Positions 18,039 through 60,434 of a DNA stretch of 64,000 bases are shown here, one piece after another; position 1 is the stretch's first letter; each line of letters opens with the position of its first letter. The translations under genes and the position numbers were made by a program. The DNA is from Diadema antillarum. Its lineage: Eukaryota. The notes under the pieces were generated by a model. That model was given only the letters and a program-made list of their open reading frames with translations, made no database searches and was not told where the DNA came from. The stretch spans positions 806,001-870,000 of the forward strand of contig NW_027271684.1 of NCBI RefSeq assembly GCF_040938485.1, read 5' to 3'.

Positions 18039-19672
18039 ATGTATGTATATCATTAATAGATTAAAAAGAATCATTTCTTAATATTTACAATACCTATTTC
18101 AAAACATAGTATAAATTTTCCCGGTGAATTTCATATTTTTGTCATTCGCATTCATGAATGTGCATTCCAATTCATGCAGCGCGAAAATATTCGAGCATTC
18201 AAATTCAGAATCCGCGCGATCGATTTCATTTATGGGAGTTCTATTTCGTTTTCGTCAAATTAAATTCACGATTGGGCATTCAATTTCCGAATGCGAGCAT
18301 CGCATTTCCTACTCGTGCGTTCAAATTCACGCGATATCCATGTGATAGTCCCGATGAGCTTGTCTGGAGCGTTCAATTTCATTTTCAGGCGATCAAGTTC
18401 CTACTTCGTGCAATCAATTTAACGAGGAAGATGGAGTAGACTTTTTCAAGAAAGGAAAAAGGGCATACACAACGCATGAAGGCTTGCCATAATGTGATAG
18501 TAATTATGATCGTTTAAATATTCTACGTTGTTCTTCGTTCATGTATTATTTTTTGTTTTTCATCTTAAAGAATTCTAAATTGTAAGGTCCAACCAGCAGT
18601 GTATCCAAACAACACAACAACAATCTAATCGTATTCATTGATGATATTGTATGCTGACCTGCTGACAACGCCCAGACACAAACCACACAATGACAATGCA
18701 TCAATTTAGTGAAAAACTGACACACAATGATTTCACATAGTCCCCAAAACTAAACCAATAAGGTAGCAATAAACAACAAAGAAGACGAATGCAATGTTTA
18801 TGTTATCAGTATCAATGTAGTCGATTTTTTTTTTAAGCTCAAGAATAAAATAAAATGATAACTTACTGTATCAAAGATCAATTTGAACAGTATAGTCAAA
18901 ATGGTTGCAAAAATTCTGCATGCTTCCATTAAAAACAGTGCAATATTTGTGTGAAACGAGGCATGTACATGCAAAAAAAAAATCAAAAAATCATGGACAG
19001 GGGGAGGGGGGAAGTGCCGCCCCTCCACTTTTTTTTTCCAGGAAGGCCATTTTTTCAGTAAATATTGGGTTTGAATTTTTCATCTTTTTAATGCTGTTTA
19101 TAAAAAGATATGGAAACCTTTTATTTATTTATTTGTTTATTTATTTATTTATTTATTTACTTACTTTTTATTCTTTGTTTTTCTTTTGGCTTTTTGGGAC
19201 GGAAATGTCTCGTGGGATGACGCACTCGAACCAGGACACTCAGATTTCATGATTCTTAGTTTTGTGTGCTGAGCCAAAATAGTTCTCATCTTTTTGTAAT
19301 AATTTATGTAATAAGAGCTCACAGTAATTACCAATTGCATAACACAGAGCTAATTAATTTCAAGTAGCTTTGTTCAAAGTATGTCTTTACCTCATTACAC
19401 GATCTGATGTAAATATTTGAAATATATTGTGTTTACATACGATGTACTTATGTTGTGTCCTATTTTTGGTGGAAATGGAAATAGATGAAGTGAAGTGAAC
19501 ATGGTGAAACCAACGGGAAAGAAATGAAGAAGCCATGTCAAAAGATCTTCTACAGTTATGACTTTTTACCGCCTTCAAACAACAAGTGAGTGTGCCACAC
19601 CTGCATGTGTATTCCTGTCTAGCAATGAATAGACGGACAACAGTGACTACATACCGAGCCCGAAGAGGATGC

Positions 19673-19678
19673 CTCGAC
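19673..19678. repeat. Left target-site duplication CTCGAC
   Basis: Identical hexamer immediately outside both element ends (19673-19678 and 37483-37488). A 6 bp TSD is the Polinton norm. Confidence 0.95.
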
Positions 19679-20071
19679 AGTAGTATTATGTTGTCTCGGG
19701 TGCCATAACTTAATTCTATTGTTTAGGACAATAGAATATGAAATATGAATATGAATATGATAGATCGATGAGTTATGAAATATGAATATGGGATATATAA
19801 ATATGAAATTATGAGTATGAATAAGATATAAAATCAAATCAAAAAATTAATCAAATAATTAACGTGATAGGAGAACTGGAAAATGAATGACGTCACTCAT
19901 TTAAATATTCATAATGACGTCAGGAGCTTTATTCATTTGCATAAATGACGTCATAGGTTGTTTTGAGAAGAGAAAACAATAAAGAAAAAAAGAAAGGTGT
20001 ATAGTGAATAGAGGGTGAACGAGTTGGGGCATGAAAGTGACGTCATGACATAGAACGCTGCATGAAGGTGT
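19679..20071 (+). repeat. Left terminal inverted repeat (about 393 bp)
   Basis: Reverse complement of 37082-37482, apart from about 4 substitutions, one hexamer-unit indel and a poly-A length difference. Confidence 0.96.
19888..20045. promoter_or_regulatory. CRE/ATF cluster plus octamer inside the TIR (mirrored in the right TIR)
   Basis: TGACGTCA at 19888, 19915, 19946 and 20038; ATTTGCAT at 19935-19942. The motifs are seen directly; function is inferred. Confidence 0.6.
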
Positions 20072-20215
20072 GCAGGAGTACGTGTGATTTATACATACAG
20101 TGCATTCGTATAATATATATATATATATATGGTTATATATACTCCTTCCCTCTGAGAAGGAAACAGACACAATTTTGTCAACCAGACGAAACAGTCCTAC
20201 AAGAACGAGAGAAAA

Positions 20216-20761
20216 ATGAAGCAGAGTTATTACAACTACGTGTATAACACGCCATCAGCCCCATCGCCTGAAGGCTCGCAAGACATGAGCAGTATTCAGG
20301 GGGAAGTCGGGAGTGATTGCACCGTGGACTATTCTCCAGACCGTCTATATATGGAGGAGGGAACATGTTTTCCCCAGTCGTCTAAGCGGAAAAACATGGA
20401 AGAAGGTGAACATCGTGTTGATCTTTCACGTAAAAGAATGAGAGGAGGTGGAAACGTGCAAGGAAAGAAGACCACGGGGAACCCCGAACCTACGAGCCAT
20501 ACTCCGGGAACGAAAGATGAGGATGATTCAAAAATTATTTGCAAAGTGTCCATCAGCGTGAAACCGGACCGCCTGAAGTACATCGTGGCCAAGACGTTCC
20601 GCAGCAAGACTTACATTGACATTCGTGAGTACTTTGAGAAAAACCACGAAGAACTACCTACCAAGAAGGGAATCACGCTCACCATGGAGGAATTCAGAGC
20701 TTTTACATCGGTGATTAAGAACATCAACGACGCCATTCAAGGGCAACATGTGAGAGGGTGA
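20216..20761 (+). CDS. Polinton accessory protein with C-terminal PC4/Sub1-like ssDNA-binding domain, 181 aa
   Basis: The C-terminal KYIVAKTFRSKTYIDIREYFEKNHEELPTKKGITLTMEEF matches the PC4 signature (Y-V-S-V..F.GK..IDIREY.....P..KGI.L...QW). The N-terminal half is low-complexity with basic patches. ATG is in an AAAATG context and AATAAA lies downstream. Confidence 0.85.
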   Translation: MKQSYYNYVYNTPSAPSPEGSQDMSSIQGEVGSDCTVDYSPDRLYMEEGTCFPQSSKRKNMEEGEHRVDLSRKRMRGGGNVQGKKTTGNPEPTSHTPGTKDEDDSKIICKVSISVKPDRLKYIVAKTFRSKTYIDIREYFEKNHEELPTKKGITLTMEEFRAFTSVIKNINDAIQGQHVRG

Positions 20762-21224
20762 AGTGGATCGGCTGAACGATGGGAGAAAAAAAAAGGAAGG
20801 CTATACAAGAAAGATTATTTTAAATCAAGATGAATACAGAAAATAAAGGCCGAGATTCAGGAGACCGATGGAGAAATTATGTGGACTTAACTGATTTGAA
20901 AAAAAAAAACAATTTATGTTATTTTATTCTTTTTTTTAATGTCAATGTCAAAGGAGAATGAGGAATAATAATAAAAAATACATCATATAGAGAACTTGTT
21001 TCATTTTACCGTCCTTATTACGTTGTTCCTTATAGATATTTCGTTGAAAAATAACTATGAGACATTGATTGGATAACTATGAGTGAGCATATGTGTTTGG
21101 ATGGGTATTTGTTTGCCTCTAAGATCAAAATGTACTGAATTGCATGCTAGTGAGAGAAGAGGAGGGGGGAAGTGAGTGAGTATGCATGATGAAGAGATGA
21201 GGTGTTTTTCAGTCCAAGTCCCCA

Positions 21225-22216
21225 GTCCATTAACGCAGTACAAATATCGGTTAATGCGCACTGTAAAGAAAGTTTGCGAGGTGTAATAGTAAAGAACGAT
21301 GACTGTTATTTGAGGACTCAAGAACAAGTTTATTGTCTCTCCATTAAGAGAACTCCGGACTAAAAAACACCTTTGTCGACAGTCCAAGTCGTCAGTCCAT
21401 TAACGTAGTTCAAAAAAAAAATGGTTAATACGCACTGTAAAGAAAGTTTGTTAGGTACAATAGTAAAGAACGATGACTGTTATTCGGGGACTCAAGAACA
21501 AGTTTATTGTCTCTCCATTAAGAGAATTCCGGACTGAAAAACACTTTTGTCCCCTGTCCATTAACGCAGTACAAATATAATACGCACTGTAAAGAAAGTT
21601 TGCTAGGTATAAAAGTAAAGAACGATGACTGTTATTTGAGGACTCAAGAACAAGTTTATTGTCTCTCCATTAAGAGAACTTCGGACTAAAAAACACCTTT
21701 GTCGACAGTCCAAGTCGTCAGTCCATTAACGTAGTTCAAAAAAAAATTGGTTAATACGCACTGTAAAGAAAGTTTGTTAGGTACAATAGTAAAGAACGAT
21801 GACTGTTATTCGGGGACTCAAGAACAAGTTTATTGTCTCTCCATTAAGAGAACTTCGGACTGAAAAACACTTTTGTCGCCTGTCCATTAACGCAGTACAA
21901 ATATAATGCGTACTGTAAAGAAAGTTTGCTAGGTATAATAGTAAAGAACGATGACTGTTATTTGAGGACTCAAGAACAAGTTTATTGTCTCTCCATTAAG
22001 AGAACTCCGGACTAAAAAACACCTTTGTCGACAGTCCAAGTCGTCAGTCCATTAACGTAGTTCAAAAAATTTGTTAATACGTCCTGTAAAGAAAGTTTGT
22101 TAGGTACAATAGTAAAGAACGATGACTGTTATTCGGGGACTCAAGTGCAAGTATATTGTCTCTCCATTAAGAGAACTCCGGACTGAAAAACACCTTTGTC
22201 CACAGTCCATTAACGT
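21225..22216. repeat. Higher-order tandem array: six 158-170 bp units alternating A/B (three dimers of about 326 bp)
   Basis: GTCCATTAAC unit starts at 21225, 21395, 21556, 21721, 21882, 22047 and a partial at 22205. Diagnostic A and B variants strictly alternate. Confidence 0.95.
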
Positions 22217-22646
22217 CGAACGATTCAAAGTTAATCCTTACTCAAAAGAATTCTTCCAAGTAGGTCTACGTAAGAACAATGGATGGAACTTCCTATGCGG
22301 GACCTATGTGCAAGTACAGAATTGTTTGTCCTCCACTTGAGAAAATAATCCCTTATTTATTGATCGGTCCTTCCCGATGACTTACATGTCTCAGCTTGAA
22401 AGTAAAGTGACGGGAAAATGGAGCGAGAGTTAGATAAAAAGGCCTGAGCAAAACCCAGTTCTCCACATTTCTTCCTATTTTATACACGAGCTATATCGTG
22501 TGGTCATTGCTCTGTAACTTTACGTTTATACAGAATCTAGACGCCAAGAGGGGTGACTGAAACCATTATGACTGTATTTAGCGTTTGAATACTTGTCAAG
22601 TTTGCACTTTTTTAGAGTTAACTTGTTACTCACTTTAAGCCGTAAA

Positions 22647-25600
22647 ATGGATGAAAACCATCCTTCACAACGCAGTTCTACTCTTAGAAACAATCTAACC
22701 AACACGATTTCAAACTTGTACGACCTCACGTCTTCTCAAATTCAAAGGATTGTGAACAGAACAGTTGATTTAGTCCGTCGTGCTCCTAGCGTTCATCCGG
22801 CAGATCAAAATGAGGTAAGTGAATGCGATGTTTCTTTTCCTAGTTCAGATAGAGATGTGGGTATTTGTAAAAACGCCTCTACAAGTGAAGTTATTGCCGC
22901 TTCAGCAGTTTCGTCGAAACCAATATTACTTTCAAAAAATGTTCCTGTTAGTTCCGTTTGCAATTGGTCTGATGATGATGACTTTGTTGATCCTAATCCA
23001 CAACAGTCACGAGTTAGAAAGCGGGAAAAACCCCGCTCTAATAGAGGGAAAGGTGGTGGTTTGAAAAAGAAAAAATCCGAATTAATTGCTGAAAGAAGAA
23101 AGTCAAAGGGAAAGGAAGCAAGACGTGTGTCTGATTCATTGAAAGGAAACAAAAAACGATCGGAATGTCCAATTGTAAAAGAAAAAATATTTCTCTCTTC
23201 TCCAAAACAACAAAGAGGAATGAAGCGTAGAATGGACATCGGAAGCGGTTCCCAATTCAAAAGATCGAAACTGAGTCTCCGACAAAGGTCAAGACGGAAA
23301 AAAGGAGAAGACAATAACATTTATGATATTCATGGCCCTTCACATTTTCATGGTACCCCCGGAAATTACGTACCAGAACATGCCCCTCCTCCCCTTACCC
23401 GATATCATGATAACGATGACGAAGATCTCGATGATTTTGACTACTCTGATAACAACTGTCATCATACTCCATGTGGTCATGTACAAAGTGGAGGAAATAG
23501 ACAAAATTCTGATCTTCCCTCTGAGACGAAACAGCACGGAGGCAAGAGAAAGAGAAAAACAAAGCATTTAGACCCACCCCACAATCAGTCTCGCCCCCCA
23601 CTGACTTCTTCGTCAGACATAAATGAATCGGAGAGCGATTGTTCAAGCCAGAGCAATGAGACTACAAAAACAGCCTCACCTCAATGGAAATTCATAGATT
23701 CACGAATTAATAAACGCTTCGGCGTACGAGAAGTCTGGTACGACTTTGTCGGAGATATACCCGATCATTCTTCAATTAGACATGTTCTTGACTATATTAG
23801 ATCATCTCTCGAGGAGCTACGAACGCTCCTTCTTCACGATACGAATGAAAGAGACTATGTGCGACTGGTGCTAGTCTCGGACCAATTGAATATTCCGATC
23901 GCTTTTCCCTGGGCAGTGGTCAGGCACTTTGACATCGCGCTTATATTAGAACGGATAGAACGAGTTCTCAATAGTAACCAGAACTTTTTCCTCAAACCTG
24001 GTTTTACTATCAGATTTCACCATGTGCAAAACCCCACTGGTGGATATACGCGAAAAATGGATGGCTTGCCTGATGACGAGGCATCCATAAGAAAAACTTC
24101 CATCATCACCGTTCCCTCCAGCAAAGAAGAAAAAACCTGTTTTGCAAGCGCAATTGTCATCTCGCGCTATTACGTTAATAATGATCGAAAATATCGAACC
24201 TGGTCTCGAACTAACAGACCACCCACAAAGGGTTTACTTAATGAAGCCGCAAAACTTCACGATCTAGCTGGCGTTCCTAAAGGAGAGGTTGATTCGAGTC
24301 AGTACGACGCCTTTCAACAAGTCTTACTACCTGAATATAGATTGATCATATACAGAGGTCGAAAAAAACATGCCATGATATATGCAGGCCCCCCAGCTGA
24401 GAAGACATTGTACTTGTATTTGACTGAATCCGGTCATTATAATGTCATCAAAAATGTTTCTGCATTCTTGTGTGTCAAGCATTTGTGCGAAGAATGCCAT
24501 GAAGTTTACAACGATCCCAGAACTCACAGTTGTTGTAATACCTGCTACGATTGTTTCAGTACAAATTGCAATCGCACTGACCCCATTAAACGCGATCCTC
24601 GAACGTGCGCCGATTGTAACATGACGTTCCTCACTGAGCAATGCTTTAAAGCTCATTCGGTGACAATTTTCAAGGGATCAACTGCCTGTAAGACCCGTCG
24701 TAAATGCCTAAAATGTGCGCGCGTGTTTGATTCGGAAGTATTTCCAGGCATATTTGATAAACATGACTGTTCCAAGATATTTTGTCAGACATGTAAAGAT
24801 TATGTCGATGGACCCACCCATGAATGCTACATGAAAGTAACAAAAGAAAGCAAATACTACGTCCCCACTGAGGCTGAGAAAGAACTTGCAGCTATGAAAA
24901 AGAAAAAAAAGAAATCAAAACCTACCACGCAAGCTGATTTGCCAGACCCACAGAGATATATTTTCTTTGATTTTGAATGTACCCAGAATACCACTTCTCA
25001 TGTTCCTAATCTAGTACACGCTACCTGGGATTGTAGTAACTGTATGGATGGTGTAACTCCCGATGGGTGGGGCTGTCTTTGGTGCGGTAATGTAGATGAA
25101 GGAAGAGAGATCACTTTTCAGGGGGAGGACACCCTGGAACGATTTTGTACATGGTTGTTGTCAGAAGATAACCACAAGGCAATAGCTATTGCACACAACG
25201 CTAAGGCGTATGACACATATTTCCTTCTTAATCACCTCGTTCGTAAAGGGATAATCCCCGAAGTCATAATGAATGGAGGAAAGATCATGTGTCTGAGCAC
25301 ACAAGACCCCAAAATCGTAATTAAAGATAGCTTAAACTTCTTCCAAATGGGCTTGGCCAAACTTCCAAAAACTTTCGGTATCAAAGAGCTGAAGAAGGGA
25401 TATTTCCCACACCTGTTTAACGTAAAAGATAATCAAAATTACGTTGGTCCCATTCCCGATAAGAAATATTTCGGGACAAACACCATGATGAAAGAAGCGA
25501 AGACAGAATTTGATGCATGGTACAATAGCCTTCCTGACAATTTTGTGTTTGATTTTCAAAAAGAAATTTTGGAGTACTGCAAGAGCGATGTAAAAATACT

Positions 25601-58308: not shown

Positions 58309-59738
58309 AGTTGGACTGGGAGTGGTGTCCCCACGCGGTCGGCATCGGGAGCCAGGCGACGAAATCTGCCCATCTGGAAGCGTGATAGAGAGTCAGCAAT
58401 GTCATTATTAACACCGGGCACATACTTGGCTCGAAACCAAATATTCCATTTCAGACACAGCACAACTAAACGGCGTATAAGAGTCATGATGTGCCTGCAT
58501 GTAGACGATTGCCTGTTAATTACCGCCACAACTGCTTGGTTGTCTGACCAAAATACTACCTTCTTGTCAGTCAATTGGTCACCCCATAGCGAAACACCCA
58601 CAACAATTGGAAACAGCTCCAGAAATGCGATCGAATACTGGCAGGCGAGGACGTCCTCCGGCCATTTAGCTTGAGCCCATTTCCCATCGAAATAGACACC
58701 GAAACCAATGCTTGCTGCCGCATCTGAATAGAAATGAAAGAAGGCGTTCCCGTGCCACACTTGATCTGGAATTTTCACCGTCCCATTGAAATTGCGTAGA
58801 AATTCGATCCAAGCAGAAATGTCGGCCTTAGCCCCGGAAGAAATTCGAATTCGGTGGTGAGGCAGACTTCCCCCGCGCGTGAGATCGATTAGTCGACGGA
58901 GAAAGGCCCTACCGGGCCCAATCGCCTTACATATGAAGTTAAGGCTGCCTATGAGCGATTGCATTTCCCGCAATGTGACCTTGGACTTGACCAGAAACTC
59001 GCGCAGCATGCTGAGAAGGGCCAAAACTTTGACTTCCGGAACCTGTACCTGCAGGGTGGATGCATCAATCTGAAGACCTAGGTATGTGATTTGCTGCACC
59101 GGACCTTCTGTCTTGCCTTCCGCTATGGGCACCCCAAAACGCTCACACATCGCCCTGAAACAATGCATTATGTGTTCGCATTCTGCAGCCGATGCACCTG
59201 CGAAAAAGAAGTCATCGAGATAGTGTAATATGGTTTGCACCCCTGCGATACGCCTGCAACAATCCTGAAGAAATGTACTAAACTTCTCAAAGACTGCGCA
59301 CGACACAGAACAGCCCATGGGCATGCATCGATCGAAGAAAAATTGCCCATCCACGCACATTCCAAGAAGATCGAAATCATTCGGGTCCACCGGCAACAAC
59401 CTAAATGCTGACTTGATATCTGCCTTCCCCATGTAAGCCCCATGTCCCAGTGAAACAACTAGGGCTACTGCATCATCGAAACTGCTGTAAACCACTGTGC
59501 ACTCTTTCCGATCGATGCTATCGTTTACTGAAGACCCCCTCGGAGAAGATAAATGATGAATCAGACGGAATTCCCCTGGAGTGCTCTTAGGGACTACGCC
59601 TATGGGAGAACATCGAAAATTCTGAAAGGGGGGAGAAGGAAAGGGGCCGGCTATCCTACCTAATTGTATTTCCTTATCAATCTTCGCTTTTACTATTTGG
59701 GGATGGTCAAAGGCCGACTTCAAGTTCGTTGCAGTCAT
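58272..59738 (-). CDS. Reverse transcriptase / RNase H, 488 aa as annotated (the reading frame extends upstream to about 59838)
   Basis: GPF...CSPIGVVPK...FRLIHHLS, KADIKSAFR, MPMGC, HYLDD; RNase H FYSDAA, FLELFP, WSDNQAVV and NDIADSLSR. Confidence 0.95.
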   Translation of the reverse strand: MTATNLKSAFDHPQIVKAKIDKEIQLGRIAGPFPSPPFQNFRCSPIGVVPKSTPGEFRLIHHLSSPRGSSVNDSIDRKECTVVYSSFDDAVALVVSLGHGAYMGKADIKSAFRLLPVDPNDFDLLGMCVDGQFFFDRCMPMGCSVSCAVFEKFSTFLQDCCRRIAGVQTILHYLDDFFFAGASAAECEHIMHCFRAMCERFGVPIAEGKTEGPVQQITYLGLQIDASTLQVQVPEVKVLALLSMLREFLVKSKVTLREMQSLIGSLNFICKAIGPGRAFLRRLIDLTRGGSLPHHRIRISSGAKADISAWIEFLRNFNGTVKIPDQVWHGNAFFHFYSDAAASIGFGVYFDGKWAQAKWPEDVLACQYSIAFLELFPIVVGVSLWGDQLTDKKVVFWSDNQAVVAVINRQSSTCRHIMTLIRRLVVLCLKWNIWFRAKYVPGVNNDIADSLSRFQMGRFRRLAPDADRVGTPLPVQLWTNFTGNKPSC

Positions 59739-59971
59739 GGAGACACGCTCGCCATTGAAACCTAGGGGAAAACCATGCGTAAAACCTCGGATTAAGGAAC
59801 GGGCATCGCCTTGGTGATGATATGAGTGCAGAAAGGGTAATTAAGCGGTCCAATAAAACGGGAGTAGGCGCGAGCGTCCGATGTGAATGCGGAGAAATTA
59901 GATTTAGAACCGGCAGAGGAGGTGACAAATTGCTTGGACTAGTGATATCAATGGAGGTGGGAGCAGGTCCG

Positions 59972-60434
59972 TTACTGGCTAGCGGACGACTTTGATTTTG
60001 CACACGCCGCTGCGCCGTGCGAGGGGTCGCTGCAACGCAGGCATCTGTGCGCGTAACGGCACCGTTTCCCCCGCAGGCAGCCCCCTCCATTGAATGCAAA
60101 GCAGACATTGGAACCCCGCGGTCGTGCTCTGTTAGGTTGGAAGAGGGGTGGGCGCTGGTTGCTTCGCTGGGGGTACCCCGCTGCCGACTGCCCGTAGGAA
60201 CGAAAAATCCGCGCTTGCGTTGTGGCAACGAGTAGCCAGAGCTCACTGTCCACTCTTGCCCAAGACATCTGCGGCTGCCTCGCGTGCCTTAGCCGAAATC
60301 AGGGAGTACTGACGAAATTGAACATCATAATCGTGCCAGTTGTACCCACACTCGGCAGCCGTGCGCACAATACTCATGTATTTTAGCAGCTCGCGCACGC
60401 GAGAAGCATGGCGCTCCGAAAATATTTTGGACAA
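59972..60434 (-). pseudogene. Gag-like ORF1 remnant, split by a 19 nt insertion and truncated at its 5' end
   Basis: ELLKYMSIVR...WHDYDVQF joins FRLRHARQPQMSWARVDSELWL after removing 19 nt. C-terminal CFAFNGGGC...CRYAHRCLRC...HGAAAC zinc-finger array. Confidence 0.8.

Follow-up and report, generated by a model that had tools for sequence, protein, structure and literature searches.

The open reading frame at positions 20216 to 20761 of the window, the 64,000-nucleotide stretch of Diadema antillarum DNA analysed here, encodes a protein of the PC4/Sub1 family and is a maintained gene of the Maverick/Polinton element that carries it. The gene belongs to the accessory repertoire of a lineage rather than to a universal core, and we lean modestly towards the view that its product is an accessory ssDNA-binding helper and helix destabiliser for the strand-displacement replication of the element. 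The interest of Polinton PC4 genes lies in their function, the Polinton core set listing no single-stranded DNA-binding protein (SSB). The reading frame runs from ATG to TGA without internal stop or frameshift, and is organised as follows:

20216..20761, + strand: PC4/Sub1-family gene (MOSUB in adintovirus naming), 181 aa; identified by ORF, Pfam, AlphaFold2, Foldseek and dimer prediction
20216..20524, + strand: disordered N-terminal region, aa 1-103; YYN motif at the N-terminus, net acidic, basic patches at aa 57-60 and 72-76
20525..20758, + strand: PC4 domain, aa 104-181; four predicted strands (106-112, 120-128, 131-142, 145-156) and a kinked helix (157-179)

The initial annotation recognised a PC4-type domain from the motifs IDIREY (aa 134-139) and PTKKGITL (aa 148-155), and both the profile search and the structure prediction that it proposed bear this out. 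Pfam PF02229 matches aa 121-164 with an E value of 2.6e-15 and 56.1 bits, against a curated cut-off of 25, and among proteins of known structure MoSub1 and human PC4 come nearest in sequence, at E values of about 2e-6 to 5e-6. The AlphaFold2 model, run on an 11-row alignment of the protein, is a four-stranded antiparallel sheet with a kinked helix, as the PC4/Sub1 family requires, and its block pLDDT is 86-96 for aa 111-170 and 42-50 for aa 1-100. The latter values agree with the disordered N-terminus that had been described, including its basic patches KRKN (aa 57-60) and RKRMR (aa 72-76), whose spacing we take to agree with the bipartite nuclear localisation signal consensus. MoSub1 (4agh), phage T5 PC4 (4bg7) and human PC4 (1pcf) are the top PDB matches of the model in Foldseek (prob 1.00), and phage PC4-like models rank first when the viral structure library is searched by fold.

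The window protein is also predicted to be a homodimer. Modelling of aa 104-181 gave a score of 0.76 (best control 0.00), with runs agreeing on at least 97% of contacts and a pLDDT of at least 85; 21 of 30 homodimers of known structure attain this mark, but none of 23 monomers does (17/29 and 0/30 for eukaryotes), and as solved PC4 dimers exist, the pass may reflect those structures and shows likeness, not binding. According to the accessible text of PMC4350104, PC4 dimers hold ssDNA on their concave beta surfaces, human PC4 contacts it through R70, F77, R86, W89, R100 and K101, and its Kd is 0.6-3.4 uM on the short oligos tested. All six contacts have counterparts in the window protein (K121, F128, R137, F140, K150 and K151, respectively), so that the ssDNA-binding surface expected of such a protein is intact at these positions, and the protein likely binds single-stranded DNA.

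The gene belongs to a Maverick/Polinton of 17,804 bp (19679-37482), which starts with AGTAGT, ends with ACTACT and has CTCGAC flanks on both sides; a 6-bp target duplication is the rule for insertion of these elements. Its remaining features are:

19673..19678, no strand: left target-site duplication CTCGAC
19679..20071, + strand: left terminal inverted repeat (TIR), starting AGTAGT, with four TGACGTCA sites and one octamer
21218..22227, no strand: tandem array between the PC4 gene and the protein-primed polymerase gene (pPolB), about 163-nt units, 326-nt dimer period
22647..27554, + strand: protein-primed DNA polymerase B, 1635 aa; PF03175 at E 1.6e-47, 60% identity over 1299 aa to DAC81418.1 (BK011011 PolB)
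28094..28735, + strand: packaging ATPase; Pox_A32 (Pfam)
28774..29118, + strand: PM-position ORF (GasderminX in adintovirus naming), by position and by-eye likeness to the BK011011 protein
29134..29886, + strand: PZ-position ORF (Adintoc2), by position and by-eye likeness to BK011011
31540..32073, - strand: adenain-type protease; Peptidase_C5 (Pfam)
32118..33452, - strand: major capsid protein, without Pfam match, by by-eye likeness to BK011011 Hexon
33489..33935, - strand: PW-position basic ORF, by position and by-eye likeness to BK011011
33938..34714, - strand: minor capsid protein (penton), without Pfam match, by by-eye likeness to BK011011 Penton
34777..35877, - strand: retroviral-type integrase with chromodomain; rve and Chromo (Pfam)
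36077..36996, - strand: right accessory region, a Bcl-2-like ORF (36077-36964) and a 153-aa ORF (36535-36996), by by-eye likeness to BK011011 Bcloid and its hypothetical neighbour
37082..37482, - strand: right TIR, 4 mismatches and 2 gaps against the left TIR
37483..37488, no strand: right target-site duplication CTCGAC

Polymerase, integrase, ATPase and protease are thus all identified by Pfam. The two convergent modules, with PM, PZ and PW, are ordered as in vertebrate Mavericks, and an accessory region lies at each end; module order and core set are those given in the part of PMC8097293 that describes them (section 7). On the left, the accessory gene is that of PC4, with pPolB on the same strand and the tandem array in between; contigs break inside this array. 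It had been placed first after the left TIR, and indeed its ATG lies 145 bp inward of the left TIR end and no earlier ORF of at least 100 aa is present in the element. The TIRs, of 393 nt (left) and 401 nt (right) with (AGT)2//(ACT)2 ends, each carry four palindromes of the CRE/ATF type, TGACGTCA, together with a single octamer, ATTTGCAT, at 19888-20045 and 37108-37267. Only 0.03 TGACGTCA sites are expected per TIR length, and none of 20,000 base shuffles reaches four. The genes behind both TIRs point inward, and CRE-type sites in TIRs facing inward genes are reminiscent of adenovirus termini. Neither a G-quadruplex motif nor an NFI site is found in the element or its ends.

The Pfam scan of the 12 element ORFs gave no SSB family match in the ORFs other than that of PC4. 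The 153-aa ORF at the right end was considered as an alternative SSB and set aside, its family search giving no usable match; it overlaps the Bcl-2-like ORF by about 430 nt in a different frame, an overlap that appears conserved with BK011011, where the likeness of the pair to Bcloid and the hypothetical protein was seen by eye, and Pfam finds no family for either ORF. In the gap between pPolB and the ATPase gene, a 76-aa ORF (27666-27896, + strand) has a hydrophobic stretch and no PC4 motif; uAdinto21199 carries a hydrophobic ORF in the same place, and in other adintovirus records a PC4 gene with a hydrophobic leader is listed beside the ATPase gene.

The initial annotation implied that such a gene in a Polinton might be new, and called for a survey of other elements; this novelty falls, as many published adintovirus (Polinton) records already label such PC4/MoSub1 genes, one of them a syntenic sea-urchin record. 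The labels MOSUB and SSDBP stand on adintovirus maps in the text layer of Supplementary Fig. S2 of Starrett 2021 (PMC8502044), and supplementary file 2 of Buck 2024 (PMC11071296) contains, in its searched portion, at least 25 MOSUB and at least 35 PC4 labels. The inspected places (24 of the 25 for MOSUB, 24 of the 35 for PC4) belong, respectively, to 16 adintovirus records plus one herpesvirus record and to 20 adintovirus records, some of them near-identical. PC4 is absent from the main texts of these two papers, of Krupovic 2024 (PMC11161782), of Stephens 2024 (PMC11131425) and of Barreat 2021 (PMC8097293), and Sub1 and MOSUB likewise have 0 matches in the main texts of Starrett 2021 and Buck 2024. 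The searchable literature assigns or tests no function for Polinton PC4 genes, although remaining supplements, subscription papers and Repbase may say more.

The syntenic record is that of a Strongylocentrotus adintovirus, BK011011, whose MOSUB is named in Supplementary Fig. S2 of Starrett 2021 and whose protein set is given in supplementary file 2 of Buck 2024. There MOSUB comes first and PolB follows, so that it occupies the same place as the window gene, and the order PolB, PacK, GasderminX, Adintoc2, Adenain, Hexon, Cupiennin, Penton, Integrase, Bcloid and hypothetical protein is the order of the window. By eye, BK011011 MOSUB is 5 of 148 residues off P0174, a protein inside the clade of the window protein; the window protein itself is 30% identical to P0174 over 136 aa and of a different subfamily, while the two polymerases are 60% identical. 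The window gene therefore lies in an adintovirus and matches the annotated MOSUB in clade and position, and it is an orthologue of this published, labelled gene. The annotation is not new, and the window gene is a further member of a labelled adintovirus accessory class.

The same supplements, in the portions searched, show that this class takes several forms. Several adintoviruses have two PC4-labelled genes, one of them behind a hydrophobic N-terminal stretch, and in Adinto16211 a TBP-labelled protein adjoins two Mosub genes. Adintovirus records, and one herpesvirus record, also include WW-PC4 fusions as well as tandem PC4 proteins that have a Cys/His motif at the C-terminus, and P0099, P0179 and P0181 have the layouts of these fusion and tandem proteins. 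Five proteins of about 400 aa (P0003, P0164, P0166, P0169 and P0171, one of them from Tetraselmis) combine PF08766 and PC4 domains, four in P0003, and head the score lists only through their repeats.

The nearest named relatives are sea-urchin proteins; among relatives with a single domain, the closest are proteins without a name and multi-copy gene models from Strongylocentrotus and Lytechinus. The many 'PC4-like' gene models in sea-urchin genomes are thus likely to be transposon-borne rather than host paralogues. The clade was represented by 20 hand-chosen proteins, one per 90% cluster, with P0115 and P0145 left out of the tree because a motif rule skipped them. These 20 group together against 22 other PC4 proteins at 94/87 over 80 columns, just under the star of the tool, and in an earlier tree 29 of 30 rows of the window PC4 clade came together at 97/90. 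In human numbering, D84, R86, P98, K101 and G102 are invariant in all 20; the F77 position is aromatic in 20/20 and that of W89 in 19/20, and R75 and R100 are basic in 20/20 and R70 in 18/20. The closest PC4 relative, P0001, has Ile at the W89 position. Identity within the domain ranges from 31 to 67% across the clade. Identity to the window protein averages 47% in the domain (19 rows) and 16% in the N-terminal region (18 rows), where basic clusters are found in 7 of the 20 representatives, and this difference between the two regions points to selection on the DNA-binding module. Among the 40 of 193 SNP rows shown, 4 synonymous and 2 non-synonymous changes fall in the PC4 ORF, which supports selection weakly (P about 0.02 with transition bias ignored, a value that is not leaned on), and none of the 12 of 45 indel rows shown lies inside it.

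Absence from sister copies and neutral drift had been named as grounds for rejecting the initial interpretation, and the sister copies instead retain it at polymerase-like depth. In all three DNA-type runs analysed the depth of the PC4 ORF is near that of pPolB (206-216 vs 207-233; 34 vs 34-65; 30 vs 24-37), and in run X2 the TIR reaches 392, the PC4 ORF 206-216 and the flank 24, a pattern that fits a multi-copy family carrying the PC4 gene, with the provisos that contig depth is not copy number and that the runs were found via the PC4 gene itself. The conclusion that the gene is maintained follows from this depth together with the contact residues kept in the 20 representatives. P0001, the top relative for PC4, and P0189, the top one for pPolB, come from the same sources, and for both the longest contig measures 17,375 nt, suggesting that they lie in one element; the RefSeq accessions of gene models for PC4 and pPolB include no adjacent pair. 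Viral contigs contained no relatives when the PC4 ORF, the capsid ORF, P0099 or the tandem-PC4 alignment served as query. The clade alignment as query recovered 6 viral and 52 metagenome PC4 loci, and none of these 58 has a gene similar to the other 11 ORFs of the element (tblastn, E 1e-3). Run X18, guessed to be RNA, has short pieces over the PC4 ORF and the TIR and has no bearing on transcription.

The protein can be compared with several known systems. With cellular PC4/Sub1 (human 1pcf/4usg; Magnaporthe MoSub1 4agh/4bhm) it has in common the fold, the predicted homodimer, the ssDNA contacts and the disordered N-terminus, while it differs in being element-borne, multi-copy and intronless, in having Phe at the W89 position and in an N-terminus that is not alignable. 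Phage T5 PC4 (4bg7) is a PC4 fold in a viral genome and, according to the consulted part of PMC7549692, is implicated in DNA replication, like the role proposed here; however, it is only 22% identical to the window protein and is tied to recombination-dependent replication, as the PDB title of 4bg7 states, and not to protein-primed replication. Adenovirus DBP, phi29 p5 and Bam35 B35SSB do the job proposed here beside a protein-primed polymerase (PMC4889955, PMC8276246), and B35SSB enhances phi29 polymerase in a non-specific manner (PMC8276246). Unlike them, the window protein has a PC4 fold, and the Pfam and fold searches, whose top matches are PC4-like, give no homology to these three proteins, a result that bears on membership and not on working like one.

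The replication-helper reading brings together helicase-free strand displacement, the existence of non-OB SSBs, the conserved PC4 contacts and a proposed unwinding activity. Protein-primed polymerases need the help of no helicase in displacing the non-template strand, and viruses that have them often encode SSBs unrelated to OB-fold proteins (PMC4889955); the beta ridge of PC4 dimers has in turn been proposed as an unwinding aid (PMC7549692, in the part available). The model proposes that the gene would be expressed early from the CRE/octamer-rich TIR and that its product would enter the nucleus via the basic patches, where its concave beta surfaces could bind the displaced strand or the opened termini. 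F128 and F140 would stack on the ssDNA, with K121, K126, R137, K150 and K151 on the backbone, and the protein would bind and melt the strand that pPolB, its neighbour, displaces, and would stimulate the polymerase. The statement that the core Polinton gene set has no assigned SSB holds for the vertebrate Maverick set as described in section 7 of PMC8097293, outside which the PC4 gene falls as well, with 0 matches for PC4 in the text and supplement searched; many elements therefore manage without a PC4 gene.

Host PC4/Sub1 proteins, which act in transcription and repair, have kept the ssDNA-binding surface too, and its conservation therefore does not single out replication. Against an SSB stand the Ile of P0001 at the W89 position, the Kd of 0.6-3.4 uM of human PC4 on short oligos and the lack of a source, in the accessible parts of the literature searched, for cooperative coating of long ssDNA by PC4. 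The adintoviruses with two PC4 genes, one with a hydrophobic N-terminus, and the herpesvirus Mosub, as they appear in the portions of the supplements seen, also fit poorly with a nuclear SSB; herpesviruses have an SSB of their own. A rather less probable proposal is that the protein acts mainly as an early transcription regulator, a PC4-like cofactor that would boost or repress TIR promoters or host genes as cellular PC4/Sub1 does. Its place directly behind a TIR with four TGACGTCA palindromes and an octamer would suit such a role, as would the layout of a disordered acidic N-terminus before a PC4 domain, like that of cellular PC4, and the TBP-labelled neighbour of the two Mosub genes in Adinto16211. 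Coactivation by human PC4 requires the N-terminal region, and in the clade this region is the one that is barely conserved, with few basic clusters, which speaks against a regulator. It is unlikely, though conceivable, that the protein binds ssDNA for a purpose other than bulk replication: it might protect element DNA, excised or replicating, from host damage sensing, or serve in end repair, annealing or integration. PC4 orthologues do act in DNA repair and genome stability, according to the sections seen of PMC4350104 and PMC7549692, and the herpesvirus Mosub and the duplicated or membrane-anchored adintovirus forms, so far as the supplements describe them, suggest uses beyond an SSB; the place beside pPolB in the window lineage, however, favours a link to replication.

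Very improbable, in turn, is the view of the gene as passive cargo, in which a retrocopy of host SUB1 would be under neutral drift in the element. Such a copy would be intronless, and the window gene reads through the Gly codon of the KKG motif, whereas a GT in this codon breaks 13 of the 52 metagenome loci for PC4, every one of the 13 inspected. However, the 20 representatives group together and keep their functional residues invariant at 31-67% domain identity, and BK011011, whose polymerase is only 60% identical, keeps the gene in the same position, so that this reading is largely refuted. The 13 loci (L032, L033, L036, L038, L041, L043, L046, L050, L052 and L054-L057) have in common a likely phase-1 intron in the KKG Gly codon. 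The intronless state of the window gene fits capture through RNA or later intron loss. Of the suggestion that the gene was captured from a host, the intronless structure stands and capture from host SUB1 is plausible, while the trees, built without a labelled echinoderm SUB1 and with basal branching not settled, name no donor. A sister position of the WW-PC4 proteins was seen in the earlier tree and was not recovered in the 20-representative tree; tandem-PC4 rows, which were sister there, were included in the earlier tree only, and no origin is claimed from them.

Beyond the replication-helper role in this one element, it could be speculated, with somewhat less than even confidence, that the single-strand-binding factor missing from invertebrate Polintons is a PC4-fold protein, host SUB1 having been recruited once or several times and kept beside the polymerase in many lineages, in single, tandem, WW-fused and duplicated forms. 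If this were true, adenovirus DBP and the phage SSBs would be joined by PC4 as another way of serving protein-primed replication without an OB fold. The PC4 domain is small and soluble, which makes its function directly testable in vitro.

Other observations concern the insertion site and the rest of the window. In run X2, an 820-nt contig (record 9) tracks the left flank (19400-19678) and departs from it exactly at the first base of the element, consistent with an empty-site allele. A 16-nt repeat array at 40243-41349 forms large arms in inverted orientation and in this resembles a foldback or MITE element, and at 57394-60108 (- strand) Pfam identifies tyrosine recombinase and reverse transcriptase ORFs, presumably those of a DIRS/Ngaro-type retrotransposon.
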